Shown here piece after piece: positions 2,699-63,390 of a stretch of 64,000 nt of DNA (the first letter of the stretch is position 1; every line of letters starts with the position of its first letter). The position numbers were made by a program, and so were the translations under genes. The notes under the pieces are model-generated. The model ran no database searches and had not been told where the DNA came from. It was given only the letters and a program-made list of their open reading frames with translations. This stretch comes from Elusimicrobiota bacterium (GTDB lineage: Bacteria; Elusimicrobiota; Elusimicrobia; JACQPE01), in contig JACQJO010000029.1 in the NCBI GenBank assembly GCA_016205025.1, positions 97,759-161,758 of the forward strand. Reading direction: 5' to 3'.

Positions 2699-4953
2699 TC
2701 TATCCGCCTTTCTTTTAGATATTCTTCAATTCGATCATATCGAATTTCCCAGCGATTGGTTCCCTCGGGCTTAAAAATATACCCGCCCACTTCAAGACGC
2801 GACAAAATATCAGTGGCGCGCGCCGAGGAGCCGAAATGGGCTTTAAGCAAATCCTGGGACACGCGGCGTCTTTCCTGAATTAATTTTAAGGCCTTAAGAA
2901 AATTTTCCACCTCCTCGCGCGACTGAACCTGGCCTTGCCCGCCGGAATTTTGGTTGTGGATGCCCATCAGAACCGCCGGTTCCGGGTAATCGGGCCCTCC
3001 CTGCTCTTTCCAAAACTGAACCACTTTTTGAATCTCCCCGTCTGAAACGTAAGCTCCCTGAATGCGCGCCGGGCGTTGGGCTCCGGCGGCCAAATACAGC
3101 AAGTCGCCCTCGCCCAACAGATCTTCGGCTCCCTGCGCGTCTAAAATGACGCGGGAATCCACCTTGGAAACCACTTGTAAGGCAATGCGCGCGGGCAGGT
3201 TGGCTTTGATGACCCCGGTGATAACGTCCACGCTGGGGCGCTGGGTCGCCAAAATCAGATGAATGCCCACCGCGCGGGCCATTTGAGCTAAACGCTGGAC
3301 ATTGTGCTCCACTTCTTTGCCCGCCACCAACATTAAATCCGCCAATTCATCAATGATCACCACGACATAAGGTTCCGGCGCAAAGGCCCCGGCATCAACC
3401 GCTCCTGGTGAGCCTTGTCGAACCACCTTGTTGTAGGCCTCGATATTTCTGACATTTTTTTGAGCGAACCGTTCATAGCGGGCTTCCATTAAATCAACCA
3501 TGGCCGCCAATGTTTTGGACGCCTCTTTGAAATCCGTAATGACGGTGACATCGGAGGCGGATTTTCTGGGGTCAAACAGATGCGGAACGCCTTCGTAAAA
3601 AGGGAGCTCCAAGCGCTTGGGATCAATTAATACCAGCTTAAGCTCATCAGGGGTCATCCGGTAGATATAAGAAACGATCATGGCGTGAATCAGCACGCTT
3701 TTGCCGGAGTTGGTCGCTCCCGCGACCAGAAGATGGGGCATGTCGGTTAAATCCGCCAGTATGCCTTCGCCGGAAGCCGAACGCCCAATCGCGAAAACAA
3801 GACGGTCATCGGCCTCTCGCGCCATTGAAGTTTCCAAAACATCCCTTAAGCGCACCAGGGTGGCTTTAGGATTGGGAACCTCAATGCCGATAGCCCCCTT
3901 ACCCGCGATGGGGCCCAGCACGCGCACCGAAGCCACGCGCAAGGCCAACGCTATATCATTGGTTAAATTAACGATCTCGGTAACTTTAACGCCGGGTTTT
4001 GGAACAACATCATACCGGGTCACCACGGGACCCGGCACAATCCCCTCAAGATCCACCAAAACCTCAAAATTAGCCAGAGCGCGCACCAGATCCTGGCCCC
4101 TGCCCTCCAAAACATCGGCCTGGGCCCAAACCTCCGAACCGCCGCTTCCCCGGTTTAATAAATCCAAAGACGGAAGCGTCCATTTGGCTGCGGCGCCCTC
4201 GCGTGGCGCGTCAGGCGCCGGGCGCGCTTGACCACGAATCGGCGGTTCCACGGGTGCGACAGTGATCTTAACCGGCCCGATTCGCTCGGTCTCCTCGGAT
4301 TCGGGCGGCCGCACGCCGTGGCCGTTGCCGTTAGCTGGTTTCTCTATTTTGACTCTCGGCGCGCTTACCGCGCCGCCGGCAGACGCAGACTGCTCGGCAA
4401 CCGCCGCGCGCCGCAAGCGCCATTCGCGGCGCCACGATTTCCAATCCTCCTGGATCAGCCGGATCGTCCGGCCGGTCAACGCTCCCCACGGCACGTCAAA
4501 AGCCATCCAGAGCCAAAAAGCTCCCAACCCCGCCAGCATGGCCCAACTGCCAAAAAAACCGACGCGATAACTCATGGAGCGCGCCAGCCATAAACCCAAA
4601 CCTCCCGCTATGTCGCTTTGATTGAAAGCCGCCAAGCCCCATCCCAAAGCGGCCAGAAAAAATCCGCCCAGCGGCAAAAATAAGGCGTGCGTCGCAAAAG
4701 CGATCTCGCTGGAAAGCGCCTTGCGCGCCGCCCAAGCTCTGGCCGCCATCCAAAACAAAAAAATAGGCGTCCAATAAGCCATCCATCCGAACGCCCCCAA
4801 CATCAAATGATCCACCCATTGACTTAAAAGCCCCATCGAGGCCGGCCAATAAAGGCAGGGGGTTAAAACGAGTCCGCAAAAAAAAGAAAAGAAAAAAAGA
4901 AAAAACCGCCACTTTTTGGAAGACTTAGCGCCCCTTGAGCGTTTCGACATCAA
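2695..4953 (-). CDS. ftsK: DNA translocase FtsK/SpoIIIE
   Basis: 752 aa. N-terminal TM segments, a Pro/Ala-rich linker, a motor domain with Walker A 'GATNSGKSV' and Walker B 'VVVIIDELADLM', and a C-terminal gamma-like wHTH. Confidence 0.9.
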   Translation of the reverse strand: MMSKRSRGAKSSKKWRFFLFFFSFFCGLVLTPCLYWPASMGLLSQWVDHLMLGAFGWMAYWTPIFLFWMAARAWAARKALSSEIAFATHALFLPLGGFFLAALGWGLAAFNQSDIAGGLGLWLARSMSYRVGFFGSWAMLAGLGAFWLWMAFDVPWGALTGRTIRLIQEDWKSWRREWRLRRAAVAEQSASAGGAVSAPRVKIEKPANGNGHGVRPPESEETERIGPVKITVAPVEPPIRGQARPAPDAPREGAAAKWTLPSLDLLNRGSGGSEVWAQADVLEGRGQDLVRALANFEVLVDLEGIVPGPVVTRYDVVPKPGVKVTEIVNLTNDIALALRVASVRVLGPIAGKGAIGIEVPNPKATLVRLRDVLETSMAREADDRLVFAIGRSASGEGILADLTDMPHLLVAGATNSGKSVLIHAMIVSYIYRMTPDELKLVLIDPKRLELPFYEGVPHLFDPRKSASDVTVITDFKEASKTLAAMVDLMEARYERFAQKNVRNIEAYNKVVRQGSPGAVDAGAFAPEPYVVVIIDELADLMLVAGKEVEHNVQRLAQMARAVGIHLILATQRPSVDVITGVIKANLPARIALQVVSKVDSRVILDAQGAEDLLGEGDLLYLAAGAQRPARIQGAYVSDGEIQKVVQFWKEQGGPDYPEPAVLMGIHNQNSGGQGQVQSREEVENFLKALKLIQERRRVSQDLLKAHFGSSARATDILSRLEVGGYIFKPEGTNRWEIRYDRIEEYLKERRID

Positions 4954-5009
4954 GATGATTCTAGCGCATAGAAAAGAAGCGGTGAAGGCTCGGGCTCGCT
5001 TAATTTTCC

Positions 5010-5131
5010 GGCGGAGCCTTAAATCTCTTGAAAAAATATCTCGGAACCCGTTTCTCTTGAAACGGGTGAGAGCTAAGTGGCGGCTGCTCTGCAGCCGACC
5101 ACGGTTTTTTCAAGAGATTTAAGGCGGAGCC
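5010..5131 (-). other. Structured ~120-nt leader element in the wHTH-ftsK intergenic region (long-range 20-bp inverted repeat enclosing two hairpins)
   Basis: 'ccttaaatctcttgaaaaaa' (5017..5036) pairs perfectly with 'ttttttcaagagatttaagg' (5105..5124). Inside lie the hairpins 'cccgtttctcttgaaacggg' and 'ggctgctctgcagcc'. No ORF covers the region. Confidence 0.35.
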
Positions 5132-5173
5132 GTTGCGCGTTATGCCAAAAAAAACGCGTGACGGTCAAAATTT

Positions 5174-5401
5174 TTAGTTTGACGCCCGCGTTAGTTGTTC
5201 TTTTGCCAAGCGAACTTTGTAGCCGTACTCCGAGGCTTCCATTTCCACCTTGCCCTCTTTAAGCATCCAACCCAAAGCCAAAAAAAGTTTGCTCGCCGAA
5301 AGTTCCAGTTTCAGTTTAAGATGCGTCGTTTCGGTTGCCCCTTCGGAGTTCAGGATCAACCGAATTTTTTCAGCAATCTCTTCAATAGATTGGCCCATCA
5401 A
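5174..5401 (-). CDS. Small winged-helix protein (DUF2582-like)
   Basis: 75 aa. The 'FLALGWMLKEGKV' motif matches the DUF2582 wHTH family pattern. Confidence 0.5.
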   Translation of the reverse strand: MMGQSIEEIAEKIRLILNSEGATETTHLKLKLELSASKLFLALGWMLKEGKVEMEASEYGYKVRLAKEQLTRASN

Positions 5402-5517
5402 ACCTCCAAATCCAAAGGCTCAAAAAGTTCAAAAGTTCAAGAGGTTCAAAAGGCTAACCAAGGATTTCTTCCTTATCCTCTTGAACTTTTTTACCCTCTT
5501 AAACCTTTTGAACATTG

Positions 5518-5940
5518 CTACTCTAACAAAAATACCGCGTCCCCTTTTTTAACGTGCTTGCCGTTGACGCCCAAAACTTTAACCACTTTCCCCGCTTTCG
5601 GCGCCCGGATTTCGTTCATCACCTTCATGGCCTCGATGATGCACAAAACATCTCCCGATTTGACCGCCAAACCCTCCTCTACGAAAGGGGCGGCCGACGG
5701 CGAGGACGAGCGGTAAAAAACACCGGATAACGGGGCGTTGACAGGGGTGCCTGAAACGGGGATAAGGGGAACCGGGGATGCGGCGATACTCTCCTGCCCG
5801 CTTCCCCTCTTACCCGCTTCACCCTCTTTCTTCAGGGCTATCTTTAGCTTTTCCTGCGGGCCCAGTTCAAATTCTAAGGCCGAAACGCCAGCCGCTTTCA
5901 TGCGTTGATACAAAAGCTCCAGCCGGGTCACAAGCGACAT
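5518..5940 (-). CDS. accB: Biotin carboxyl carrier protein of acetyl-CoA carboxylase
   Basis: 140 aa. Biotinyl-lysine motif 'EAMKVMNEI' in a C-terminal lipoyl-like domain, preceded by a Pro/Ala-rich linker. Confidence 0.85.
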   Translation of the reverse strand: MSLVTRLELLYQRMKAAGVSALEFELGPQEKLKIALKKEGEAGKRGSGQESIAASPVPLIPVSGTPVNAPLSGVFYRSSSPSAAPFVEEGLAVKSGDVLCIIEAMKVMNEIRAPKAGKVVKVLGVNGKHVKKGDAVFLLE

Positions 5941-5968
5941 GGGGCTAACTTACCAGATTATGAATTTT

Positions 5969-8625: not shown

Positions 8626-9585
8626 CTAGCCACCTCGCGCTATTTTTACGTCTTTCATAATTTGAGCGCGCAAGTCCTCCAAAGAACCGAACTTTTTCTC
8701 ACCGCGAATCCGGCTTAAAAGTTCCAGCGTCAATGTCCGGCCGTAGAGGTTGCCCTTAAAATCAAGAACATGGGCCTCAACAACGGGCAAAAGGGGTGAG
8801 GGGTGAGGGGTGAGGGGTGAGGTAAAAAAACGATTTTCTTTCTGACCCCTGACCCCTGACCCCTGACCCCTGACTGTTGGCCTAAATCCGATATTAACCA
8901 CGGCCAGGCGGTCAAGCTCCGGTGCGCGAGCCCGGAACACTCCTAAGGGCAAAATTTTGGCGGGGTCAATGGACAAATTGGCGGTCGCGATCCCCAACAG
9001 CCTGCGGCCGATGCCTTCCCCCCGGACTACCCGGCCTCCAATGCGGTATGGCCGGCCCAAGAGGCGATTAGCCCGCGAAACATCGCCCTCGGCCAAAAGG
9101 CCCCGAATTCTGGTTGAAGAAACGGCCAATCCGCGCCCGGTTTTCAGCCGCACCATGCGCCAGCGAAGCCCAAGAGGCCGAAGAAACCGCTGGAAACTGG
9201 TGCTGTCGCACAAGCGGTCCTTGCCGAGGGCGAAATTCTCGCCGAAAACCAAGGTGTCTGCGCGCCACAAGCCGCAAGCGTAGCGCTTCAAAAATTCCCC
9301 GGCCGAAAGATTCAATAGAGAGCGCTTAATGCCCAGCACCGCTACCTTACGAATTCCAAACTCCTCGCGCAAAATCCTGATCCTCTCTTCAACCGTGGTT
9401 AGAAGCCGCACGATCCTGGTATTGCCATACAAAAAAACACGCGGCGAGTAGGGAAAAATGGCAACCATGGGTTCCAAATTCTTTTGCCGGGCCACGCGCA
9501 AAAGACCCTCCAGCGCCTTGCGATGCCCAAGGTGCAAACCATCAAAAGTGCCGATGGTAAGCGCTCTTTTCCTTGGCTTGGTCAT
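8626..9585 (-). CDS. ribF: Bifunctional riboflavin kinase / FMN adenylyltransferase
   Basis: 319 aa. N-terminal 'TIGTFDGLHLGHR' nucleotidyltransferase motif. C-terminal riboflavin-kinase motifs 'NIGFRPT...EAHVLDF..NLYG'. An in-frame repeat insertion lies at 8796..8876. Confidence 0.9.
   Translation of the reverse strand: MTKPRKRALTIGTFDGLHLGHRKALEGLLRVARQKNLEPMVAIFPYSPRVFLYGNTRIVRLLTTVEERIRILREEFGIRKVAVLGIKRSLLNLSAGEFLKRYACGLWRADTLVFGENFALGKDRLCDSTSFQRFLRPLGLRWRMVRLKTGRGLAVSSTRIRGLLAEGDVSRANRLLGRPYRIGGRVVRGEGIGRRLLGIATANLSIDPAKILPLGVFRARAPELDRLAVVNIGFRPTVRGQGSGVRGQKENRFFTSPLTPHPSPLLPVVEAHVLDFKGNLYGRTLTLELLSRIRGEKKFGSLEDLRAQIMKDVKIARGG
8796..8876. repeat. (GGGGTGA)n ... (TGACCCC)n hairpin repeat embedded in frame in ribF
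   Basis: 'ggggtgaggggtgaggggtgagg taaaaaaacgattttctttc tgacccctgacccctgacccctgacccctga'. It encodes 'GQGSGVRGQKENRFFTSPLTPHPSPLLP' inside the riboflavin-kinase domain. The ribF reading frame is kept. Confidence 0.75.
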
Positions 9586-10043
9586 TGGTGCGCCAATCCA
9601 AATTTTCTTTGCGCCGAGATGCGGCTGATCACGTCGCCAAACTCCGGATTCTTGTTAAGGAGATACTCAAAATCCTGGGAAAGAAGAGTGAATATCTTGG
9701 ATTCTTTGCCGGCAACGGCGCTGGCCAGACGAGGAGCTTTTTCCCAAAGCGCCATTTCGCCAAAAATTTGGCCCGGACCAAGGCAGGCGATCTCTCTGGA
9801 AAAAAATAGGAACGCTTTTTTTCGAATAACAATTTCTCCTTCATAAACTACGAATAGGGCGTCGCCACCGTCCCCTTCTTTGAATAGGGTGTGGCCGCGG
9901 CCGCATCGAAACAGCCCGAACGAGGGAATAACTTTTTCTAATTGCCCGGTCGTCATGCCGCCAAAAAAATGGATTTTCGCGAGGGTGGACAAAAGCCACT
10001 TCTGGTCGGAAGGTCCGATATTTAATTGTTCCAGCTTAGGCAT
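9582..10043 (-). CDS. Cyclic-nucleotide-binding domain protein (stand-alone cNMP-binding domain)
   Basis: 153 aa with the cNMP-binding signature 'FGEMALW...A.A'. The stop overlaps the ribF start. Confidence 0.65.
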   Translation of the reverse strand: MPKLEQLNIGPSDQKWLLSTLAKIHFFGGMTTGQLEKVIPSFGLFRCGRGHTLFKEGDGGDALFVVYEGEIVIRKKAFLFFSREIACLGPGQIFGEMALWEKAPRLASAVAGKESKIFTLLSQDFEYLLNKNPEFGDVISRISAQRKFGLAHQ

Positions 10044-10746
10044 AGTTTACGCTAGCCATTAAATTTTTGGATATATCCTGAAGACGTAAACCGTCGTCGC
10101 AATGATACGGTCCGACCGAAACCCGCGTTAATGAAGCGAGGTAAGCCCCGGTGCCCAAGGCCCGTCCAAAATCGCGCGCCAACGCCCGAATATAACAACC
10201 CTTGCCGACTTTGGCCTCGAATGAGAAAGAAGGTGAACAAAGTGAGAAAGGTGAACAAGGTTCGATTATTTTAAACTCATATACTTGCACCTTACGAGCC
10301 AACGGCTGAACCATTTGACCTCTACGGGCAAGCTCATAGAGGCGCTTGCCGCCCCAATGAAGCGCCGAATAAACCGGGGGTTCCTGCTCAATTTCACCTA
10401 GAAAACTTTCCGCTATTCTCTGGAAATCATCTTCTCGAACTTTTATCACCTTGTTCACCTTGCTCACCTTTCTCACCTTCCCCGTCAGGTCATCCGTATC
10501 TCTTTCCTCCCCCAGCGCGATCGTGCCGCGGTAAACCTTTGGCATATCCATTAGCTGCCCTGACAATTTTGTGGCTTTGCCCAAAAGAATCAACAACACG
10601 CCCTCGGCAAAAGGATCCAACGTGCCGGCATGGCCTATTTTCGATAAGGAGATAAGGTCCTCTCGCCTCATCGTTCTTTTAATGTGCCTGATCACGTCAT
10701 ACGACGTGATCCCGGCGGGCTTGTAAACGTTAAGGATGCCATCCAT
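10036..10746 (-). CDS. truB: tRNA pseudouridine(55) synthase
   Basis: 236 aa 'NVYKPAGITSYDVIRHIKR...GHAGTLDPFAEGVLLILLGKATK'. The catalytic Asp lies in 'GTLDP'. The gene contains a pair of internal inverted repeats (10221..10262 and 10446..10481). Confidence 0.9.
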   Translation of the reverse strand: MDGILNVYKPAGITSYDVIRHIKRTMRREDLISLSKIGHAGTLDPFAEGVLLILLGKATKLSGQLMDMPKVYRGTIALGEERDTDDLTGKVRKVSKVNKVIKVREDDFQRIAESFLGEIEQEPPVYSALHWGGKRLYELARRGQMVQPLARKVQVYEFKIIEPCSPFSLCSPSFSFEAKVGKGCYIRALARDFGRALGTGAYLASLTRVSVGPYHCDDGLRLQDISKNLMASVNYA

Positions 10747-11767: not shown

Positions 11768-11773
11768 GGATAA

Positions 11774-11862
11774 ATGCGGGAAAGGCGGTAGATGCGGGAA
11801 AGGCGGTAAAAAAAATGAAAGGAAACTCCTTGCCCTTCACCGCTTTCTCCGCCTTTACCGCT
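11774..11862. repeat. ~90-nt hairpin element (GCGGGAAAGGCGG ... CCGCCTTTCCCGC), copy 1, in the nrnA-rbfA gap
   Basis: 'gcgggaaaggcggtagatgcgggaaaggcggtaaaaaaaatgaaaggaaactccttgcccttcaccgctttctccgcctttaccgc'. It is nearly identical to copy 2 at 12296..12390. Confidence 0.75.
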
Positions 11863-11872
11863 TTTTCCTTTA

Positions 11873-12286: not shown

Positions 12287-12295
12287 TTTAAAAAA

Positions 12296-12390
12296 ATGCG
12301 GGAAAGGCGGTAGATGCGGGAAAGGCGGTAAAAAAAATGAAAGGAAATTCCTTGCCCTTCCCCGCCTTCACCGCCTTCCCCGCCTTTCCG
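12296..12390. repeat. ~90-nt hairpin element copy 2, in the infB-rbfA gap (direct repeat of 11774..11862)
   Basis: 'gcgggaaaggcggtagatgcgggaaaggcggtaaaaaaaatgaaaggaaattccttgcccttccccgccttcaccgccttccccgcctttccg'. Confidence 0.75.
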
Positions 12391-14548: not shown

Positions 14549-15847
14549 TTATGCGGTCTGTCCTTCTTCCGAAATTTTTTCTTTCTCCTCAACGGCCGCT
14601 TTAATTTTTTTCGCCTTAACTTTCTTTTTCCCTTCGGAAGCCGCCGCCGTTTCTGCTTGCGCCGCCTCTTCTTGTTTGGATTTCTCCTGTTCTCCCCCAG
14701 CATCCAGCATCGAGCATCCAGCATCCTCTTCTTTTTTCTCCACCCCTCCAGCATCCAGCATCGAGCATCCAGCATCTTCTTTCTTCACCGCTTCCACCGT
14801 GATGTTCCATCCGGTCAACTCCGAGGTCAGCTTCAAATTCAAACCATCTTTGCCGATCGCTCCCGCCAGCTGGTCCTGCTCAACAAAAACGCGCGCCGTC
14901 TTTTTTTCGGTATCCTCGACCTCCACCTTAGACACCTTGGCCGGCGCCAAGGCCGCCGCGATCATGCCTTCGGTGTTGTCTCCCGACAAAACAAGGTCAA
15001 TCTTCTCTCCATGCAGCTCGTTGATCACCGGGCGGATGCGCGTTCCCTTGATGCCCACGCAGGCGCCGACAGGATCAACCCTGGGATCGTTGGATTTGAT
15101 CAGCACCTTGCTTCGAAACGCCGGCTCGCGAACCACTTTCAAGATCTCGACCGTCCCGTCATGAACTTCCGGAACCTCAAGGCGCAAAAGGCCCTGCACG
15201 AACCCGGGAGCGCTTCGGGAAAGATAAACCTGCGGCCCCCTAAGATCCAGCTCCACCGAATGCACCAGGGCTTTCAAAGGCTGGCCGATGGAAAACCTTT
15301 CGCCCGGAATTTGTTCCTCTTTTTTTAAAATGGCCTCGATTTTGCCCAAACTGACATAAACAGTTTTGTCATGGCCGACGCGATAAACGGAACCCGTAAT
15401 CACCAGGTTCTCCTTCTTTTTGAAATCCTTGAAAAGATTTTCTTTTTCAACCTCGCGTAGTTTCTGCAGGATCACCTGCTTGGCGGTTTGGGCCGCGATT
15501 CTGGAAAACTCCATGGTGTCAACCGCCACCGGCACGTCTTCATCAACCTTCACCGCCGGATTGATTTTTTTAGCCGCCTCAAGAGAAATTTCGGCCAAAG
15601 GATCGCTGACCTGTTCCACCGCTTTTTTCAAAATAGCGGCTTTGGTTTCTCCGGTCTCGCCATCCATCGTAGCTTGAACCGGAATCTCGCGGCCCATGTG
15701 CTTGACCAGCGCGGAAGCCACCGCCCCTTCGATCAAGCGTAAAATCTCCTGGCGGGGAATGCCCTTGTCCCGCTCGATGGTCTCTAAAAGCAAAACAAAC
15801 TCGGTTTTGGAAGTCATAAATAGTGAGGCACTGAGGCACTGAGGCAC
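14549..15847 (-). CDS. nusA: Transcription termination/antitermination factor NusA
   Basis: NusA N-terminal, S1 and KH domains, with an acidic/Lys-rich C-terminal tail. The probable true start is 'MTSKTEF' at 15817. The ORF extension to 15847 runs into the hairpin repeat. The C-terminus contains a ~45-bp direct repeat (14697..14787) encoding 'EDAGCSMLDAGG' twice. Confidence 0.9.
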   Translation of the reverse strand: MPQCLSASLFMTSKTEFVLLLETIERDKGIPRQEILRLIEGAVASALVKHMGREIPVQATMDGETGETKAAILKKAVEQVSDPLAEISLEAAKKINPAVKVDEDVPVAVDTMEFSRIAAQTAKQVILQKLREVEKENLFKDFKKKENLVITGSVYRVGHDKTVYVSLGKIEAILKKEEQIPGERFSIGQPLKALVHSVELDLRGPQVYLSRSAPGFVQGLLRLEVPEVHDGTVEILKVVREPAFRSKVLIKSNDPRVDPVGACVGIKGTRIRPVINELHGEKIDLVLSGDNTEGMIAAALAPAKVSKVEVEDTEKKTARVFVEQDQLAGAIGKDGLNLKLTSELTGWNITVEAVKKEDAGCSMLDAGGVEKKEEDAGCSMLDAGGEQEKSKQEEAAQAETAAASEGKKKVKAKKIKAAVEEKEKISEEGQTA

Positions 15848-15925
15848 TGAGGCACTGAGTGAAAAAGAACAATTCTTCTTAGTGCCTTAGTGCCTAAGTG
15901 CCTATTTGCCTCTCTCTGTGCCTTG
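15826..15925. repeat. GGCACTGAG/AGTGCCTTA octamer hairpin element (copy 2 of 3), in the rimP-nusA intergenic region
   Basis: 'gaggcactgaggcactgaggcactgaggcactgagtgaaaaagaacaattcttcttagtgccttagtgcctaagtgcctatttgcctctctctgtgcctt'. Confidence 0.75.
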
Positions 15926-16482: not shown

Positions 16483-18312
16483 TTATTGCGCCGACAGGCG
16501 CGCGCGATCCATCGGGTGGGGCAGAGTATTTTGAAGAATCATCTCTTCGGCAAGTTTTAAAATCTTATTTTGGGCCTGCAAAATCCGTTCAACGGGCGGC
16601 CGCCCCACGGTGACGAGGTACTCCTGCAAAATCTGGCTTGTTTTCTTGGGCAGGGAGTGAAAAATTTTATCCTTTAAGCCGGGGTCCGACAGGCCGTCTG
16701 AAATCGCTATGGCCAATTCATGAATCTGCACGCGCGAGAGAAGCATGTTTAACTCCTGCTCCGACCAATAGGTTATATCCCCAAAAAGCAAAACCTTGCC
16801 GCGCACGATCCGGTAAAGATTGGCGTCTTGGCTTTCGATCGTTTTAAGCATTTTCTCGCGCAACAGCAGATCAACGGCGTTTAACGTGTTGACAATTTCC
16901 TGCGCGCCGCCGACGACCCCGGCGATGCGGTGCTCCAGTTCCTCTTTCAGGCGCTCCATTAATTCCGTTTCCACCATTTGAGGCTCAGCCATCGCCTTGA
17001 TGACCTCTCCCAAGCGCTCGGATGGGAACTGCTCCAAGAACGCCTTTTTAGTGGCGACCGGAAGGCGGGCTACCACCAGGGCGATGTGGTTCGGATTTTC
17101 CTGCCCGATCAAGTGATAAAGGTCGGCCACGCGCGCCGGCGCGATCTTAATCTCCGCTTCGCCCGGCGCTTCGCTTTTTTGAGCGGCCATTTCGATTAAT
17201 TTTTCATCTCCGGCGCCGCCCGGCAACTCGTCTTCCCCCTCCTTGTCCTTGGCCATCCTTCCCTCAAGGTAAGCCCGCAGTTTATCCGGAAACTCAAATT
17301 TCACCTCGATGCTTTTTTGCCTGGCGGCTGAAAAAGCCACCACCCATTGCGCCAAAACTCCCACCAAGGAACGCCAAGTAATCAAAGCCAAAAACGTGGT
17401 GGCAACCAAGCCGATGATCAGAATAATCCCGATCGTGCCCCACTGAAGCACGGTGCCCAAAACCTTGGAATCCTTCAATAACTCCATGAAAGGATTGGGC
17501 ATGCTGAATCGCGTCACGACCAAACGGTCCCCCCGAGCCGCGTCCAGCGTTAAAAATGACCCGATCAAGGTCTGCACCTTCGCCTCGGCGTCCGCCGGCA
17601 AAGAATAATCCAGGGCGACCTTGACGAAAACGGATTTAACCTCCAGGCCCACCGCGTAAAGAAAATTGGGGTCCGAGAAAGGGTAACGCCCATCCGCCGC
17701 CTTCCTGGAACCCGGCGGCGCGCCGCCGGTTGGAACCGAAACCCCGGTCCCCACGGCCGAAAACCCGGGCAGGATAAAGGTGTCGGTTCCGGAGGCCTGG
17801 GGATCGCCGCTGTCCGCTATGCCCGGAAAAAGCCATTTATAACTGGAAGGATTTTCAGCTCCGGCATCGTCTGCCGGCGCGTCCTTGGCTGTCCGGCCTA
17901 ACTGGCCGGACAAATAAGCCGAAAGGCTGTTTTGCAATTCTTCCTTGAGTTTTAACGAAAACCCGACGTCCACATGCACGAAAACCTCGGCGTTTCCGGT
18001 GCCGAACGTTTTATCCAGGTGCTCCTGAATTTTATTCTTAAGATCACGCGACAGGTAGCTGGAAGCCTGAACAATCGCGCCTCCGGGCTCCAGGGGAAAG
18101 GCGAATGGAGGAAAGGCACTAAGGCACAAAGGCACTAAGGCACTAAGAATAACAGCTCTTCTTAGCTTAGCGCCTAAGTGCCTTTTTGCCCCAGTGCCCA
18201 AGTGCCTAAGTGCCTCTATGCCTATCTTGCCCTTTATCACTTTTTCCCCTTTTAGATTAATCCCAAAACCCCCCCCGCGCAACCCCCAACACCAAAAAGT
18301 AGGGACAGACAC
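16483..18312 (-). CDS. Membrane protein with a C-terminal FliG-like (FliG middle/C-terminal, MgtE-N-like) domain, possibly a FliF/FliG-like fusion
   Basis: 609 aa. The C-terminal ~250 aa align by eye with FliG. One TM helix 'IGIILIIGLVATTFLALITW' lies mid-protein. The N-terminal aa ~24-67 are encoded by hairpin repeat 18110..18240, and the start codon is uncertain. Confidence 0.45.
   Translation of the reverse strand: MSVPTFWCWGLRGGGFGINLKGEKVIKGKIGIEALRHLGTGAKRHLGAKLRRAVILSALVPLCLSAFPPFAFPLEPGGAIVQASSYLSRDLKNKIQEHLDKTFGTGNAEVFVHVDVGFSLKLKEELQNSLSAYLSGQLGRTAKDAPADDAGAENPSSYKWLFPGIADSGDPQASGTDTFILPGFSAVGTGVSVPTGGAPPGSRKAADGRYPFSDPNFLYAVGLEVKSVFVKVALDYSLPADAEAKVQTLIGSFLTLDAARGDRLVVTRFSMPNPFMELLKDSKVLGTVLQWGTIGIILIIGLVATTFLALITWRSLVGVLAQWVVAFSAARQKSIEVKFEFPDKLRAYLEGRMAKDKEGEDELPGGAGDEKLIEMAAQKSEAPGEAEIKIAPARVADLYHLIGQENPNHIALVVARLPVATKKAFLEQFPSERLGEVIKAMAEPQMVETELMERLKEELEHRIAGVVGGAQEIVNTLNAVDLLLREKMLKTIESQDANLYRIVRGKVLLFGDITYWSEQELNMLLSRVQIHELAIAISDGLSDPGLKDKIFHSLPKKTSQILQEYLVTVGRPPVERILQAQNKILKLAEEMILQNTLPHPMDRARLSAQ
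18110..18240. repeat. GGCACTAAG/CTTAGTGCC octamer hairpin element (copy 3 of 3)
   Basis: 'ggaaaggcactaaggcacaaaggcactaaggcactaagaataacagctcttcttagcttagcgcctaagtgcctttttgccccagtgcccaagtgcctaagtgcctctatgcct'. In the FliG-like ORF frame it encodes 'RRAVILSALVPLCLSAFPPFAFP' (signal-peptide-like). Confidence 0.75.
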
Positions 18313-18989: not shown

Positions 18990-19769
18990 ATAGGGACAGA
19001 CACTATTTATTAGAAAATAAATAGTGTCTGTCCCTATTTATTAAAACGGGACGTCCCCTGATCTTGGGGGTTAAGTCCTTCTGCAGAACCTGCTCCATGC
19101 GGCTAATAAACTCTTCTTTTCCCGTGGGGCGGCCACGATGAGTGGCGTGGCGAATGCCGCTTAAAAATCGCGCATCTTCTTCGTCAGTCAAATAATCTGA
19201 CCAGTTTGGTATCTCCTCCAATAAAGGACAATAGGAAAGAATGGGGTTGGGTATTTTGGAAATATGAGCCTTGGCGCTCGACCAAAAATATTCTTCCGCT
19301 TTTATAACAAGTCCGGCACGCACCGGATTTCTTTCAACATAACGAACTGCCGCATAGGTATACTGCTCATCTAAAACACTAGAAAAAAATCGGCCTTGCC
19401 AGAGATGTCCGCTCCGTTTGGCCTTAGCGTTAAAGTACAAGGCATAGGTAGCGTGAAGAGAAGCCATGGTTTTTGCTATCGAATTTTGATTTTCAGGCAC
19501 AACAATAAAATGTACGTGATTGGTCATTAAACAGTAAGCCCAAATCTTCAGACCAAACTTCTGCGAGCATTCTTTTAACCCACCAAGATAAAATCTTCTA
19601 TCCTGATCATCAAGAAAAACATTTTCTTTATTGTTTCCCCTCTGCGTAACATGGTGAGGCAAGTCAGGCACGACAACTCTCGCATCTCTGGGCATGGAAA
19701 AATAGTACAAAATAATAAATAGGGACAGACACTATTTATTAGAAAATAAATAGTGTCTGTCCCTATTTA
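18988..19769 (-). mobile_element. IS200/IS605-family (RAYT-like) tyrosine transposase unit flanked by family-1 perfect palindromes
   Basis: Palindromes 'aaatagggacagacactatttatt agaa aataaatagtgtctgtccctattt' at 18988..19040 and the same at 19716..19769 bracket the tnpA ORF. Confidence 0.8.
19003..19710 (-). CDS. tnpA: IS200-like / REP-associated tyrosine transposase (HuH Y1)
   Basis: 235 aa. HuH motif 'TNHVHFIV' and a C-terminal catalytic-Tyr region 'YVERNPVRAGLV'. 'MPRDARVVVPDLPHHVTQRGN' is the probable true start (M6). Confidence 0.8.
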   Translation of the reverse strand: MYYFSMPRDARVVVPDLPHHVTQRGNNKENVFLDDQDRRFYLGGLKECSQKFGLKIWAYCLMTNHVHFIVVPENQNSIAKTMASLHATYALYFNAKAKRSGHLWQGRFFSSVLDEQYTYAAVRYVERNPVRAGLVIKAEEYFWSSAKAHISKIPNPILSYCPLLEEIPNWSDYLTDEEDARFLSGIRHATHRGRPTGKEEFISRMEQVLQKDLTPKIRGRPVLINRDRHYLFSNK

Positions 19770-21724
19770 TTGGAAGCGGTGCAGGAATTCGGAAAGGGCT
19801 TTGTTGTCGGGGTTGATCTCAAGGGATTTTTTCCACATTTCGAAGGCCTTGTCGCGAATGCCGAGCGCGAAGTAGGAAGAACCCAGCCGCTCGTAGGCCA
19901 AGGCGTTGTTGGGGTCCAGCTTAATGGCGTCTTCGCAGGCTTTGGTGGCCATTTCGAATCGGCCCTGTCTAAAGAAGCGATCCGCCTCCTGAAGCTTGGC
20001 GATGATGTTGACGCGCGGCGGCAACAGCGGCTTGGTTTTTTCCTCCGCGCGGCCGGATTCCTCTACCATGGTTTCGAAGATGCGCCGGGTGATCTCGTCT
20101 CCCGGATCCTCCGCCATGGCCTGGCGCATCAATAAAATGGCGCCGTCTAAATTGGCCTCGATATAGTCGGACAACCCGCGCAGCATATAGGTATATTTTC
20201 TCTTCAACTCGGAAGGCGCGTCTTCGGACGGCTTTTTCATTTCCTCGGTCGTCAACCGCAGCCAGCCGATCACCTTCTCGGCGCGCGAACGGCGCACCCC
20301 GACCACCTGGTCCGTGGGATTGGTGGCCAATGACTTATCCATCAACCGCGCGGCCTCAAGGAACCGCCCGGCCCGGTAAGCTTCCTGCGAATGGTCCAGG
20401 TAACCCTGCGACAAGCTCTTTCTCTCGCGCACCTTACTGCCGCCCAGCCACACCCCGACCGAAAACCGGCTGGAGTTGCCCAGTTCATGCATCATCATGG
20501 CGTAATCAAGCTGGACGTTGCCGTATCTCATGCCCAGGCCTCCGGAAGCGGCGTTGGTCCCGCCCATGCCCAAGCGCAGAGCGGCCGGCCCCAACCCGTA
20601 CTCCAAGCCCACCCTGGTCACCGCGCCAACCTGCTCAAACTGGCTCGAAACCTTAAGCGCTCCTTCGAATAGTCCGTAGCTGGCGCCCAAAACAACATTT
20701 AAGGGCAGTTCGTCTTCGGTGCCCACTCCGGTAAACAGCACGTCGCGCAGAACCAACCCTATTTCCCCATGTTTAAACGCCTGATAATCCATGGCCATAT
20801 CAAGAGAGGCCAATGATGACGACGCGCCCGGCAGGCTTCGGGTCAAATACTTTCCGGAGGCGCCAAAAGAAAAGGAGGAGCCGAACCGGTTGCCGTACGA
20901 TAAACCCAAGCCTTGGCTCATAAAACTGTAATCGCCCACCAAATTGTTATTGTCATCCCTTTGCTCAACAGCCCCGATGCCAAGGCGCACCACCGAAAGC
21001 CCCACGGTACCGGCCGACAGCATGGGATAAGCCCACCCCGCGTAATCGTAAGTGGCGCCCTCAAACAAACCCGCGTGCAGGAAGTTAAAATTCATTCTCT
21101 CAAGATAAGACAACCGCGCCGGGTTCCAGTAACCGGCCGTGGCGTCTTCGGCCATGACGATGGAGGCGTTGCCGAGACCCAGGGAACGAGCGCCGGCTCC
21201 AAAAGTCCAAATATCGCCAGCTCCGCCCCCTAACTCTTTACCAAAAGAGTTAGGGGGAAAGGCGACAGAGGCCAAAAAGGCCACGGAGGCCAAAGACGCT
21301 ATAATAAAATTGTGGCAAAGACGTTCAAGGATCTTATTGTTTGGAAAGAGGCTAAATTGTTGGTCCACAGCATTTACCGACAAACATCCGGTTTTCCTAA
21401 AGAAGAAACTTATGGACTTATCTCCCAAATGCGCAGAGCAGCGCTTTCCGTTCCCAGCAATATTGCCGAAGGCTGGGGTTCGCATTCTACGGACAAACAA
21501 TTTCTTCAATATCTCAACAACGCCAGCGGCAGTCTTGCGGAACTCGAATCGCATATCGCCATTGCTGCCGATGAAGGTTTTCTTGCTAGCGCGCACAAAA
21601 ACCAACTTGAAGACCAAGTGAAACGCATAAGCTATCTCATAAACCGTTTTAGAGATCGCCTTAATTAAGATTACCATCGCCTCTATGGCCTCTTTGGCGT
21701 CTTTCGCGTCTTTCGCCTTTCTCA

Positions 21725-21725
<1 letters not shown>
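19767..21725 (-). CDS. Outer-membrane beta-barrel protein of the FadL/PorV-like type with C-terminal TPR repeats (5' end uncertain)
   Basis: The N-terminal mature region 'GAGARSLGLGNASIVMAEDATAGYWNPARLSYL' matches the FadL/PorV 'NPA' motif family. A Gly/Tyr/Ser-rich alternating-strand region of ~300 aa follows. The C-terminal ~200 aa carry TPR repeats ('AYERLGSSYFALGIRDKAFEMWKKSLEINPDN'). The first ~140 codons of the ORF overlap the opposite-strand four-helix-bundle gene and a repeat arm. The hydrophobic 'ASLASVAFLASVAF' stretch is encoded by repeat 21258..21300. Confidence 0.6.
21226..21300. repeat. Left inverted-repeat arm plus a hairpin flanking four-helix-bundle cassette 1
   Basis: Hairpin 'ccccctaactctttaccaaaagagttaggggg' (21226..21257). 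It is followed by 'aaaggcgacagaggccaaaaaggccacggaggccaaagacgc', which is inverted relative to 21683..21722 ('ggcctctttggcgtctttcgcgtctttcgcctttctc'). Confidence 0.7.
21312..21668 (+). CDS. Four-helix-bundle protein (TIGR02436 / '23S rRNA intervening-sequence protein' family; Avd-like fold)
   Basis: 118 aa. 'FKDLIVWKEAKLLVHSIYRQTSGFPKEETYGLISQMRRAALSVPSNIAEGWGSHSTDKQFLQYLNNASGSLAELESHIAIAADEGF' matches the family hallmarks (DL.VWqkA...iy.lt..FPkeE.ygL.sQ.rRAa.Si.sNIAEG.gr....e...fl.iA.GSl.El.t.l). Confidence 0.85.
   Translation: MAKTFKDLIVWKEAKLLVHSIYRQTSGFPKEETYGLISQMRRAALSVPSNIAEGWGSHSTDKQFLQYLNNASGSLAELESHIAIAADEGFLASAHKNQLEDQVKRISYLINRFRDRLN
21683..21722. repeat. Right inverted-repeat arm of four-helix-bundle cassette 1 (tandem GCGTCTTTC units)
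   Basis: 'ggcctctttggcgtctttcgcgtctttcgcctttctc'. It lies between the 4HB stop and the giant-gene stop. Confidence 0.7.
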
Positions 21726-59344
<37,619 letters not shown>

Positions 59345-59679: not shown

Positions 59680-59737
59680 AAAAATGGTACCAGGTACCAA
59701 ATGGCCAAAAATATCCATTTGGTACCTGGTACCATTT
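59680..59737. repeat. Family-2 palindrome, copy b (intergenic)
   Basis: 'aaaaatggtaccaggtaccaaatggccaaaaatatccatttggtacctggtaccatttt'. Confidence 0.85.
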
Positions 59738-60013: not shown

Positions 60014-60072
60014 AAAAAATGGTACCAGGTACCAAATGGGCACTAATGCCCATTTGGTACCTGGTACCATTT
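60014..60072. repeat. Family-2 palindrome, copy c, at the 5' end of transposase 2, preceded by a truncated extra arm at 59995..60010
   Basis: 'aaaaaatggtaccaggtaccaaatgggcactaatgcccatttggtacctggtaccatttgtg'. Confidence 0.85.
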
Positions 60073-60789
60073 GTGCATTTGTGCTTAAATCCAATAGTTA
60101 TGCCAAGACACCCAAGAATAGAAATGCCTGGAGGTTTTTACCACGTTCTGAACCGTGGCAACAACAAGCAAGCATTGTTTCGTAATGCGGGTGACTACGT
60201 ATTCTTCTTAAACCTATTGGAAACTGCTTCTAAAAAATGGCCCTTTAAGGTGCACGCTTATTGCCTAATGCCCAATCATTACCATCTCTTTATGGAAACC
60301 ACAGAAGGACACTTATCGCGCCCGCTGCATCTTGTTAACAGAGCCTACGCCGCTTATTTTGCTAGAAAATACGAATTTACTGGACACGTATTCCAAGGAA
60401 GATTTAAATCGCTCATGGTTGAAAAAGAAGGCTATCTTTTAACTCTTTCTAGATACATCCACCTTAATCCCATCAAAGCCAAGCTGGCACAAAAACTGGA
60501 AGATTATTCCTACTCCAGCTATGCCTGCTTCATGGGACTTAGATCAAAGCCGAACTGGCTGGATATCGAAACCACGCTAAGCTACTTCGGATCAACAAGC
60601 ATACTCCAGCAAGAACAGTACAAGCTTTTCGTGTTAAGCGAGATGTTCGAATTGCAAAACGAACCTTTTTATCAAGCCGCCGATGATGTGCTGGAAGGAA
60701 AATCCAAAGCGCTCATGAGATTAAAAAAGGTACTCCACTTAAAAACAGCGCCTAGCACCGCAACGGAAAATAAGGTACTAATTAATTAA
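60019..60789 (+). CDS. tnpA: IS200-like / REP-associated tyrosine transposase (second copy; probable true start ATG 60100)
   Basis: 'MPRHPRIEMPGGFYHVLNRGN...CLMPNHYHLFMET...GHVFQGRFKS...SRYIHLNPIKAKL'. It carries the HuH motif and a catalytic Tyr region. It has the same architecture as 19003..19710 but diverged sequence. The N-terminal 27 codons of the maximal ORF are translated palindrome. Confidence 0.8.
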   Translation: MVPGTKWALMPIWYLVPFVHLCLNPIVMPRHPRIEMPGGFYHVLNRGNNKQALFRNAGDYVFFLNLLETASKKWPFKVHAYCLMPNHYHLFMETTEGHLSRPLHLVNRAYAAYFARKYEFTGHVFQGRFKSLMVEKEGYLLTLSRYIHLNPIKAKLAQKLEDYSYSSYACFMGLRSKPNWLDIETTLSYFGSTSILQQEQYKLFVLSEMFELQNEPFYQAADDVLEGKSKALMRLKKVLHLKTAPSTATENKVLIN

Positions 60790-61692: not shown

Positions 61693-61738
61693 AAGTAGGT
61701 AGTAAAAAAAGTAGGTAGTAGATAGTAGGTAGTAGGTA
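61693..61738. repeat. (GTAGGTAGTAG)n left inverted-repeat arm of four-helix-bundle cassette 2
   Basis: 'gtaggtagtaaaaaaagtaggtagtagatagtaggtagtaggtagg'. It is the inverse of 62152..62182 'cctacctactacctactacctactacctact'. Confidence 0.75.
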
Positions 61739-61767
61739 GGGGAGGGGAAAGGGTAGGGGAAACAAAA

Positions 61768-62144
61768 ATGTTGACAACGGAACTGAAAACTGCAAAGGCC
61801 CAATGTTTTGAAGATTTGATTGTATGGCAGAAGGCTCATCAAGCCGTCCTTTATATATACAAACTGACAAAAAATTTTCCTTCCGATGAACGCTACAACT
61901 GGTTTCGCAAATGCGTAGGGCCGCCGTATCCGTAGCCGCCAATATTGCCGAAGGTTTCAAAAAGAGATCAACAAAAGATAAAAGTAATTTCTACAATATC
62001 GCCCAAGGTTCTCTTGAGGAGTTGCGTTATTATTTGTTGCTTTCAAGAGATTTGGGGTATATTGGTGACAACGAACTTCTGTCTAACCAAATGGACGAGG
62101 TCGGGCGGATGCTTAACGGTTTAATTGCTTCCCTTAAATCCTAG
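61768..62144 (+). pseudogene. Four-helix-bundle protein gene (TIGR02436 family), frameshifted
   Basis: The N-terminus 'MLTTELKTAKAQCFEDLIVWQKAHQAVLYIYKLTKNFPSDERYN' is in one frame. The C-terminus 'LVSQMRRAAVSVAANIAEGFKKRSTKDKSNFYNIAQGSLEELRYYLLLSRDLGYIGD...' is in the +1 frame. A single missing base lies near 61893 ('tacaac|tggtt' where 'tacaacctggtt' is expected). This is a pseudogene or a sequencing error. Confidence 0.6.
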
Positions 62145-63390
62145 TCGCTCTTCCCTACCTACTACCTACTACCTACTACCTACTATCCTTCTTCTTGCCA
62201 GTTGCTCTCATCTCCCCTCGCGCAAGGCGTCTGATTCCTGGACTGTCCGCGATTTAGTCCAAACCTCCGAAGAAGTTCGTCCCCTCGCTTGCGCGTTCGA
62301 TCAGACGGGCCAACTTCGTGTTATCTACGCCGCCAGGGAAAAGATGTTTCACGTGGCTGCGCCTGAAGGGTTTAGCGCGGGGGGGTTGCCCGAAACGCTT
62401 CCTTTTTCGGCTCCCCCGTCCAGAACGCCGGCCAGTCTGATTTTTGACGCCCAAAACCGCGCTCATTTTTTTTATCAGGGAAAAAACGGCTTGCATTACG
62501 CTATCCGTCAAAACGAAGGGTGGATTTTGGCTCTCCTGACCGACCATTTAAGAAACGGGGCTTCCTGGCAAACTTTTTTTGACAGCCAAAATGTTCCCAC
62601 CATTATTTTCGAGCACAGGGAAAACTTTCTGGCTGTGACAAAACCGACAACGGCCGGCTGGCGGGAACTGCGCTTGCCCCTGTCGGACAAAAACGAACCG
62701 GGGCGCATCGTCTGTTCAACCGCCAAGCTGGATGCCGAGCACAAGCGGCTCCACTTCGCGGCGATTCGAGAAAAAAACAAAAAGGCCCATCTTTGGTACG
62801 CGGCGGCCAATATCACCAATTACCCGCAAAGAACCGTCTCGGCCCCGACAGGCATCCAAGAGATGCTCTCAACGGACGGGGTTTGGGAAGAAACTTTTTC
62901 TCTTTTTGAATTTAAGGTCAATTCAATCGGCGGCTGTACTGTTAATCTCGGCAATGATTTACCCGGCAGTATTCACTTCACCTGGGTGGACTGGGCCAAA
63001 AAACAATGGACCGGAAAGGAACATCTTCGATTCGGCCGCTACGATAAGGAATGGAAAATCAAAACCTTAGAAAAAAATATCGCCTCTGGAAACCGGGGGC
63101 TTGTTTTCGCGCGGGATTCAAACGGCACGGATCAATTCGATCTTGTTGTTTTTAATCCCACGACGCAGGTTTTGCGTTACCTTGCTTTAGACGAAGAAGG
63201 GGCGATGCGGGAAAAAGGAACGATTCCTTTCTTGTCCGGCGCGCCGCCCTGCCTGGCTTTGAAAAAGGGAACCCCGCAAGTGGGGCGAGGGAAAAAAGAT
63301 GTGGGTAACAGTAAGCCTGGTGGAGGGGCGTGGATCGTGGTTAGTCAGAAGGAAGGACTGAAAGCTTTCGTTGAGAACGCACGGCCTTAG
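62125..63390 (+). CDS. Hypothetical lipoprotein
   Basis: 421 aa with a TTG start. Signal peptide with lipobox 'ILLLAS|C'. No recognisable catalytic motifs. Confidence 0.5.
   Translation: MLPLNPSRSSLPTTYYLLPTILLLASCSHLPSRKASDSWTVRDLVQTSEEVRPLACAFDQTGQLRVIYAAREKMFHVAAPEGFSAGGLPETLPFSAPPSRTPASLIFDAQNRAHFFYQGKNGLHYAIRQNEGWILALLTDHLRNGASWQTFFDSQNVPTIIFEHRENFLAVTKPTTAGWRELRLPLSDKNEPGRIVCSTAKLDAEHKRLHFAAIREKNKKAHLWYAAANITNYPQRTVSAPTGIQEMLSTDGVWEETFSLFEFKVNSIGGCTVNLGNDLPGSIHFTWVDWAKKQWTGKEHLRFGRYDKEWKIKTLEKNIASGNRGLVFARDSNGTDQFDLVVFNPTTQVLRYLALDEEGAMREKGTIPFLSGAPPCLALKKGTPQVGRGKKDVGNSKPGGGAWIVVSQKEGLKAFVENARP
62152..62182. repeat. (CTACCTACTAC)n right inverted-repeat arm of four-helix-bundle cassette 2, lying within the N-terminal coding region of the downstream lipoprotein gene
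   Basis: 'cctacctactacctactacctactacctact'. It encodes 'LPTTYYLLPT' of the predicted lipoprotein signal peptide. Confidence 0.75.

Follow-up and report, generated by a model that had tools for sequence, protein, structure and literature searches.

This work concerns two small gene cassettes in a 64,000-nt stretch of DNA, hereafter the window, from an Elusimicrobiota bacterium (metagenome-assembled genome of the class Elusimicrobia, assembly GCA_016205025.1, contig JACQJO010000029.1, positions 97,759 to 161,758 of the forward strand). Each of them consists of a gene for a four-helix-bundle (FHB) protein enclosed by two arms, which are inverted arrays of short tandem repeats. Both had been noted in a preliminary description of this DNA, and the coordinates given there hold to within a few bases. 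The FHB, or intervening sequence (IVS), protein family is very large, and its members usually appear in annotations as isolated, scattered entries named "four helix bundle protein". To our knowledge, no function has been known for this family for more than 30 years.

The first cassette (cassette 1) carries an intact open reading frame (ORF) of 118 aa at 21312..21668 on the plus strand, with a GTG start. Its product scored 107.1 bits against the TIGR02436 profile (cut-off 24) and 116 bits against PF05635 (cut-off 33.8), and it matched PDB entry 2GSC with E=2e-19 (sequence similarity only). Thus, it is a clear member of the TIGR02436/PF05635 family, with a four-helix-bundle fold predicted from sequence similarity; for the second cassette, too, the profile matches bear out the family assignment proposed earlier. 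The motif GxxRxxxSxxxNxxEG, conserved in the FHB family (quoted in PMC3936711), is present as QMRRAALSVPSNIAEGWG in the ORF of cassette 1 and as QMRRAAVSVAANIAEGF in that of cassette 2, and residues N50, A52, E53 and G54 are invariant in an alignment of FHB proteins (alignment A1). Profile searches detected no nuclease, recombinase or polymerase domain in the FHB protein.

The arms of cassette 1 are located at 21257..21307 (left, 5') and 21671..21721 (right, 3'). They are 51 nt each and 76% complementary, and both were recognized by Tandem Repeats Finder (TRF) as 9-nt tandem arrays (period 9/18 in the left arm). On the plus strand the left arm is composed of purine-rich 9-mers (AAAGGCGAC, AGAGGCCAA, AAAGGCCAC, GGAGGCCAA and further units) and the right arm of pyrimidine-rich ones (TCTTTGGCG, TCTTTCGCG, TCTTTCGCC). 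As a measure of such arms we used an inverted-repeat score, the best local alignment of the 220 nt upstream of an ORF with the reverse complement of the 220 nt downstream. The score of cassette 1 is 42, while among the 405 displaced controls the 99th percentile is 25 and no score exceeds 32. In the predicted RNA fold the arms pair around the ORF (z=-5.7). The whole cassette, both arms included, is 465 bp long, and the GC content of its ORF is 0.45 vs about 0.59 in the flanks. A sigma-70 promoter scan gave a single weak match on the minus strand (21328-21301, start near TTG 21293), which is at chance level, and no terminator-like site was found. No rRNA and no other RNA family was found in the window by the Rfam scan. 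PADLOC gave no anti-phage defence match, and a role in such defence was dropped.

Cassette 2 has the same organization and, as had been proposed, a broken gene. Its FHB ORF (61768..62144, plus strand) is split by a frameshift, a 1-nt deletion near 61900, into the frame pieces 61768..61935 and 61911..62144. The C-terminal half scored 86.2 bits against TIGR02436 and 81.5 bits against PF05635, and the N-terminal piece 21.6 and 32.3 bits, respectively. The left arm (61693..61744, plus strand) consists of tandem AGTAGGT/AGTAGAT heptamers with a best-paired core at 61710-61744, and the right arm (62150..62187, plus strand) of tandem CTACCTA heptamers. The segments 61710-61744 and 62150-62184, 35 nt long with 7-nt units, are 94% complementary; the inverted-repeat score is 60, and the RNA fold again pairs the arms (z=-8.05). 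The cassette is 475 bp long between its outer ends. The GC content of the whole cassettes is 0.46 (cassette 1) and 0.42 (cassette 2), vs 0.52-0.59 in the flanks. No arm sequence is common to the two cassettes. Alignment, TRF, the controls and the folds all agree that the arms are real inverted tandem-repeat arrays, as had been stated in the preliminary description.

The downstream gene of cassette 1 encodes a PorV/PorQ-like outer-membrane barrel with C-terminal tetratricopeptide repeats (TPRs); it scored 85.6 bits against NF033709, slightly below the cut-off of 90, and its orthologues were found in five other Elusimicrobia assemblies. The maximal minus-strand ORF of this gene (19767..21725, 652 aa) spans the entire cassette 1 in antisense, in agreement with the overlap described earlier. 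The ancestral ATG of the gene is located at 21723..21725 on the minus strand and overlaps the TAA of a neighbouring giant gene by one base (TAATG). Cassette 1 begins 1 nt after this ATG, and native sequence resumes at PPNSFG|KELGG. It had been described as wedged between the giant gene and the outer-membrane protein gene; judging by the sequence, it lies inside the PorV-like gene, where it replaces the n- and h-regions of the signal peptide. Translated on the minus strand, the left arm reads ASLASVAFLASVAF, the hydrophobic core of the present signal peptide, so the hydrophobic N-terminus is encoded by the arm, as had been noted, while the right arm reads RKAKDAKDAKEAIE. In the deposited annotation the PorV-like gene starts from TTG 21293, within the left arm, which gives MASVAFLASVAF... 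as its N-terminus. The arm-encoded candidate export segment is MASVAFLASVAFPPNSFG, and the extension from ATG 21725 comprises 144 codons.

Comparison of the orthologous junctions in related genomes revealed that cassette 1 is an insertion at the junction of the giant and PorV-like genes. The junction is empty in locus L085, where a TGATG overlap is followed by a normal signal peptide, MKKIAVLILCFWALAGARLSA|KELGG, without a cassette or a hairpin (fold z=-1.2). In L082 a different FHB cassette, in the sense orientation and so opposite to cassette 1, comes 2 nt after the TAATG overlap. Its FHB protein scored 80.4 bits against TIGR02436 and has no BLASTP similarity to the cassette 1 protein, and its arms are AATGCTG/CAGCATT heptamers (30 nt, 80%). 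There, a single in-frame ORF of 647 aa (4001-5944, CAYHKQ010000007.1) runs from the ATG through an arm, the FHB gene (which has no stop codon) and the other arm into the PorV-like/TPR sequence; no canonical internal start codon precedes the signal-peptide-like segment KILKFIFIFFSIQHLAFSPLLA|KPLGG of this fusion ORF. In two other Elusimicrobia assemblies, in L086 (3921-4100) and at the N-terminus of protein P0125, palindromic inserts similar to repetitive extragenic palindromic (REP) sequences occupy the same place after the ATG, in frame, and are translated as ...VIASPGRSNL..., ...GPRNDG... and ...CHPERSEGS.... The junction is, therefore, a hot spot for hairpin-type insertions. L087 contains no FHB ORF; its signal peptide is encoded by a 9-nt-periodic purine-rich stretch together with the pyrimidine-rich stretch after it. 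No target-site duplication could be defined at cassette 1, as the orthologous sites are too diverged.

Since purine-rich arms encode K/R/E/D and their complements L/F/S/A, a pair of arms reads as charged and then hydrophobic in either orientation, which explains why arms repeatedly come to serve in signal peptides. Of 80 FHB genes, only three, that of cassette 1 among them, have a codon-aligned antisense frame that is open throughout. The rarity of such a frame, together with the in-frame state of three other insert-bearing orthologues, suggests that selection keeps translation from the coupled ATG open. The site illustrates how an insertion within a signal-peptide coding region can be tolerated.

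It should be mentioned that the perfect hairpin at 21226..21257 (minus strand; 14-bp stem 21226-21239/21244-21257, 4-nt loop, z=-5.2), previously taken for a boundary of the cassette, is not a part of it. The residues that it encodes, PPNSFG|KELGG, belong to the native PorV-like protein and lie at the signal-peptidase site, and an equivalent 14-bp/4-nt hairpin with compensatory base changes, CCCAATTCTTTCGC-TTTC-GCGAAAGAATTGGG, is kept in L087 (3973-4004); a weaker 8-bp version is present in L085 (about 4063-4081). This hairpin may act as a translational pause or a regulatory element of the host gene.

To show how general this arrangement is, we took 80 loci encoding relatives from one-genome-per-species contigs; the 81 FHB genes scored come from more than 10 phyla, with groups such as Acidobacteriota, Bacteroidota, Planctomycetota, Lentisphaerota, Omnitrophota, Chloroflexota, Nitrospirota, Cloacimonadota and Clostridia. 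The median inverted-repeat score was 34 at the FHB genes vs 17 in the displaced controls from the same loci (n=405), and 74% of the 81 genes lay above the control 99th percentile. In an independent set of viral contigs, 18 of 27 distinct FHB genes had a score above 25, again with arms of tandem 7-mers or 8-mers. Thus, an FHB gene with flanking inverted arms recurs across phyla and on viral contigs, which, together with the empty and alternative states of the orthologous site, sustains the earlier view of a unit flanked by inverted repeats outside rRNA operons. The protein itself is an ordinary member of a known family, and the unit looks like a hitch-hiking element that is widespread and little described. 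An earlier survey reported PF05635 genes between cas genes, e.g., between cmr3 and cmr2 (PMC3936711), which fits intergenic insertion.

The geometry of 50 of these loci was analyzed. The arm period is 7 or 14 in 40 of them, 8 in seven and 9 in two, the last being cassette 1 and its closest relative. The unit sequence varies by locus (GTTGTCG, GAGTGAC, GAGTACC, TAGGCAA and GAGTAGC are examples), with a weak enrichment of an AG/AGT core (37 of 50 loci vs 53% expected). In the median, an arm is 32 nt long, the left arm ends 31 nt before the ORF, the right arm begins 10 nt past the stop codon, and the total length is 498 nt. The 5' arm is G-rich in 82% of the loci, which is valid for either strand because the element is symmetrical. 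The arms abut the stop and start codons of neighbour genes, and among cassettes flanked by co-oriented neighbours 58 of 62 are in the sense orientation. Some cassettes are three-armed (L001 10358-10507; L007 3' of the FHB ORF), with an arm, the ORF, a direct arm, a short loop and an inverted arm; this layout is an ORF-less hairpin abutting or nested with an ORF-bearing one.

Several observations indicate that the ORF and the arms form one unit. The GC content of the arms (0.458) is close to that of the ORFs (0.464), while that of the flanks is 0.534; arms are below flanks in 45 of 50 loci, and ORFs in 78 of 81 (p=2e-14). The closest homologue of the cassette 1 protein (58% aa identity) was found in another Elusimicrobiota genome, locus L001, in a different gene context; the arms there are 44 nt long and 93% complementary, with a 9-nt period and partial homology to those of cassette 1 (AAGGCGACAGA...). 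Similarly, the cassettes of L009 and L072/L015 are about 71% identical and have GTCGTTG arms in common between unrelated flanks. Hence, composition is common to ORF and arms, and where ORFs are homologous their arms are too, even if the surroundings are unrelated. Moreover, the two arms of a cassette evolve in concert: at an orthologous site, both arms contain TAGCATA/TAGCGTA units in Capnocytophaga felis and TAGAAAA/TAGAAGA units in C. cynodegmi, and at orthologous sites in three Acidobacteriaceae genomes, as seen in L011/L039, the CGAGTAC and CTAGTAC variants match between the arms.

These results bear on the explanation that the arms are chance low-complexity sequence, or ordinary bidirectional terminators, beside a small gene. 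It is true that the arms are low-complexity tandem repeats and that stems may be imperfect (76% in cassette 1). At the same time, the inverted-repeat scores are far above those of the displaced controls, the folds reach z=-5.7 and z=-8.05, the search for terminator-like sites gave none, and the layout is present in 74% of the surveyed genes, with arms that change in concert. We regard this explanation as extremely improbable and, in view of the control scores, the survey recurrence and the concerted arm change, as refuted.

The known elements most relevant here are the IVSs of 23S rRNA genes. In Coxiella burnetii, the terminal repeats of the IVS that encodes S23p form a 28-bp stem, and the RNase III cut releases an RNA of 428 nt; the Coxiella IVSs are 428-444 nt long with a GC content of 36% vs 42.5% in the genome, and their mobility was proposed long ago (PMC4990558). 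The cassettes are like the 23S rRNA IVSs of Leptospira and Coxiella in several respects: (i) the same protein family is encoded in the loop; (ii) the sizes are close, 428-444 nt in Coxiella and 465 and 475 nt here, with the median of 498 nt over 50 loci; (iii) terminal inverted repeats form a stem of about 28-50 bp, the GC content is below that of the host, and the elements are suspected to be selfish or mobile. In contrast to IVSs, the present cassettes are outside rRNA, as indicated by the Rfam scan, and they are located in protein-coding operons and even in a signal-peptide region; in the window, without rRNA, the location in helix 9, 25 or 45 of 23S rRNA that defines IVSs does not apply. 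Their arms also differ, being tandem 7-9-mers that vary by locus, and cutting by RNase III is proposed for them by analogy.

With these data in mind, we consider it fairly probable that both loci are stem-loop cassettes of about 470 bp, similar to rRNA IVSs, that ride on host transcripts. The promoter-poor FHB gene would occupy the loop of a long hairpin, with the inverted short-tandem-repeat arrays as its arms. The cassette would be transcribed within the host transcript; expression of the gene from such read-through is suggested by the sense bias (58/62) and by the arms abutting the stop and start codons of the neighbours. In the transcript the arms would form a double-stranded RNA stem of 30-50 bp, which RNase III may cut as in the rRNA-borne members. 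The cleavage would free an FHB mRNA capped by a stem and split the cistrons on either side from each other, and such excision could allow the element to sit in rRNA, in operons and in 5' coding ends at little cost. Cassette 1 landed 1 nt past the PorV-like ATG, and its pyrimidine-rich arm now encodes the hydrophobic core of the signal peptide. That RNase III excises these two cassettes is inferred from the rRNA case. Among the window ORFs scanned outside the giant gene and the repeats near the cassettes, no recombinase, reverse transcriptase (RT) or template/variable repeat (TR/VR) pair was found.

A number of observations weigh against this reading. Cassette 1 is antisense to its host genes, which is the minority state (4/62). 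The variants of the repeat unit do not follow a mirrored order between the arms, and unit identity rather than exact pairing could be the conserved feature. Mismatches between arms are of G:U type in 43 cases vs 65 of A:C type, so that no selection for pairing in the sense RNA is visible. Hairpins without an ORF, and solo arrays, with the same units are also present. In addition, truB (10036-10746, minus strand) contains inverted 9-mer arrays in frame (10225-10261 and 10446-10479), which encode KVRKVSKVNKV and SPFSLCSPSFSF and have between them about 60 codons of TruB sequence that is native and conserved. Tandem-array hairpins can, therefore, arise or persist without an FHB gene. Finally, the most similar pairs of cassettes sit at orthologous sites, which means that residence is long and movement rare. 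The preliminary description suggested that the family moves; the insertion polymorphism at the PorV-like site stands in favour of this, while movement itself we infer, and it would be rare.

A rival explanation is an element acting at the DNA level. In that case the arms would be arrays of protein-binding sites, i.e., terminal inverted repeats, their complementarity would be a by-product, and the ORF-less hairpins would be non-autonomous derivatives like miniature inverted-repeat transposable elements (MITEs); either a host factor or the FHB pentamer may serve as the synapsing or mobilizing protein. This agrees with the lack of a G:U excess on the sense strand, with the unit identity kept although the variants are unmirrored between arms, and with the many ORF-less hairpins and the solo array of the window. 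Arrays sharing the unit of a cassette arm are about 15 times commoner elsewhere in the same locus than in other loci, and the idea that the IVS ORF is a mobility factor was put forward by Ralph and McClelland (quoted in PMC4990558). However, a purely DNA-level role does not predict the sense-orientation bias of 58/62 in operons, the FHB protein has no recognizable nuclease, recombinase or polymerase domain, the copies are not near-identical as in active MITE families, and no target-site duplication can be defined. A DNA-level role of the arms, with the FHB oligomer as a possible ligand, is a serious rival of the stem-loop transcript reading, although we regard it as unlikely.

The window also contains at least seven hairpins that are built like the cassettes but enclose no ORF; their arms are inverted tandem 7-, 8- or 9-mers, and the loop measures about 20 nt (2622-2692, 5420-5509, 8792-8874, 11772-11868, 12294-12386, 15824-15903 and 18113-18215). 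Thus, such arms are not peculiar to FHB genes. The hairpin at 8792..8874 consists of (AGGGGTG)x4.4, a loop of about 20 nt and (CTGACCC)x4.7, with a minimum free energy of -65.5 kcal/mol. The hairpin at 11772..11868, with the 9-mer arms AAAGGCGGG / CCTTCACCG, is located between rbfA and a DHH-family gene, and its second copy at 12294-12386 between infB and rbfA. The hairpin at 15824..15903, with the 8-mer arms TGAGGCAC / CTTAGTGC, lies between rimP and nusA and has relatives at 18113-18215 and 2622-2692. A solo array, (AGTAGAT)x5.3 at 59165..59201, is 90% identical to an arm of cassette 2 and has no inverted partner. Most of the ORF-less hairpins are in spacers or 5' gene ends of the conserved operon rimP-nusA-infB-rbfA-truB-ribF-pnp.

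This distribution in operon spacers raises the possibility that the hairpins are RNA-processing or stability features of the host, and that only the FHB ORF is mobile and inserts into their loops as IVSs replace rRNA tetraloops. The sharing of units within a genome, and the position of rRNA IVSs at helix tips (PMC4990558), would fit with this. However, in GC content the arms are like the ORF rather than the host, homologous ORFs in unrelated surroundings have arms that are homologous as well, and the empty orthologous site of L085 has no hairpin (fold z=-1.2). We find this explanation quite improbable.

The preliminary description also pointed to Avd, a component of diversity-generating retroelements (DGRs), and an orphan Avd or a DGR remnant was considered. 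Avd is pentameric and has a distantly related four-helix-bundle fold; 2GSC was deposited with five chains. The cassette 1 protein shows a weak similarity to Avd models (NF033474, E=7e-4; PF22296, E=4e-3), and there are lectin-like domains in the giant neighbour gene. But the scores of 19.8 bits (NF033474, cut-off 80) and 18.2 bits (PF22296, cut-off 40) are below the cut-offs, no RT was detected in the scanned ORFs outside the giant gene, and around the two cassettes the arms are the sole repeats, none being of the TR/VR kind. The DGR reading is hardly conceivable and is essentially refuted for this window.

Comparison with other repeat families gave only partial likenesses. Cyanobacteria, Beggiatoaceae and Bacteroidetes have tandem 7-mers at gene boundaries, frequently just upstream of start codons, known as short tandemly repeated repetitive (STRR) or TAACTGA heptamers, and FHB or IVS proteins are not mentioned in the paper that describes them (MacGregor 2015, PMC4679880). 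Their units resemble arms of our set, e.g., CAACTGA/TCAGTTG in L004 and L052; they were described as direct repeats without a linked gene, whereas here inverted pairs enclose an FHB gene. Correia or NEMIS (Neisseria miniature insertion sequence) elements are hairpin MITEs of a single sequence with defined target duplications, cut by RNase III in transcripts. The cassettes are similar to them as inverted-repeat elements at gene boundaries which would be co-transcribed and form long RNA stems, and differ in that the repeat unit changes from copy to copy and that many of the copies bear a gene. Of the features of MITEs and transposons bounded by inverted repeats, terminal inverted repeats and presence/absence at orthologous sites were found here, while near-identical copies and a target-site duplication were not, the arms being different between loci. 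In the literature on TIGR02436, PF05635, the IVS protein, S23p and STRR or other heptamers, as far as our queries reached it (some of them broad), FHB genes with inverted tandem-repeat arms were not found.

It may be hypothesized, rather tentatively, that FHB genes with inverted 7-9-mer arrays make up a widespread and hitherto unrecognized hitch-hiking or mobile class, in which the FHB oligomer recognizes the units found in its own arms, solo arrays and hairpins lacking an ORF are non-autonomous copies or footprints (possibly including the STRR/TAACTGA heptamers), the 23S rRNA IVSs are the first-noticed case, and arms are recruited as n- and h-regions of signal peptides. As a whole, this generalization is more doubtful than the interpretation of the two cassettes as stem-loop elements. 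If the gene almost always travels in a hairpin, the ORF-bearing rRNA IVSs become ordinary members of a general class. If true, it would also provide a handle on the function of FHB proteins, namely binding or processing of their own arms, and a possible origin for the unexplained tandem-heptamer arrays of several phyla. For annotation, there is a warning that gene starts and "signal peptides" beside cassettes can be encoded by arms, as here in the PorV-like gene, the orphan lipoprotein gene and the giant gene.

The orphan gene downstream of cassette 2 is annotated from TTG 62125, inside the 3' end of the FHB gene. The right arm of cassette 2, translated as ...LPTTYYLLPTI..., is located in its predicted lipoprotein signal peptide, before the lipobox LLASC. 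The gene has no database homologue and hence no orthologous junction for comparison.

The giant gene (21725-59344, minus strand) encodes 12,539 aa in one ORF, including repeats of the Kelch-like, LamG-like and C-type-lectin-like types; its orthologues have FlgD_ig/Por_Secre_tail matches at the C-terminus, and it is translationally coupled to the PorV-like gene (TAATG). On the minus strand the solo array 59165-59201 reads YLLSTIYYLLST, a hydrophobic stretch in the N-terminal signal region of the giant protein. The true start of this gene is likely MNRRL..., with the core of the signal peptide encoded by the heptamer array.

At the 5' end of infB (14697-14789, minus strand) we found two direct copies of a 44-nt unit, each with (CCAGCAT)x4. 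In the coding strand these repeats read ATGCTGG and give rise to the N-terminus annotated for IF2, MLDARCWML..., and the true infB start is probably further downstream than annotated.

Two genes of REP-associated tyrosine transposases (RAYTs, IS200-like) are present in the window, at 19003-19710 (minus strand) and 60019-60789 (plus strand), 35% identical to each other and each one gene away from an FHB cassette. A palindrome similar to REP doublets (REPINs) occurs in three copies (AATGGTACCAGGTACCAAATGG ... CCATTTGGTACCTGGTACCATT) at 59274-59327, 59683-59736 and 60018-60071, and it is translated into the annotated N-termini of the second RAYT and of the giant protein (MVPGTKWA...IWYLVPF). RAYT genes and REPIN-like palindromes are thus located within 1-1.5 kb of both cassettes, as in REP/REPIN-RAYT systems. 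In contrast to such systems, the palindrome AATGGTACCAGGTACCAAATGG is unrelated to the arms, and a RAYT homologue was found in one of roughly 87 comparison loci (L061). In the absence of a general association, the RAYT was rejected as the mobilizing enzyme. An AT-rich unit of 31 nt, AATAAATAGGGACAGACACTATTTATTAGAA, occurs as two tandem copies at 19714-19775, between the first RAYT gene and the end of the PorV-like gene.

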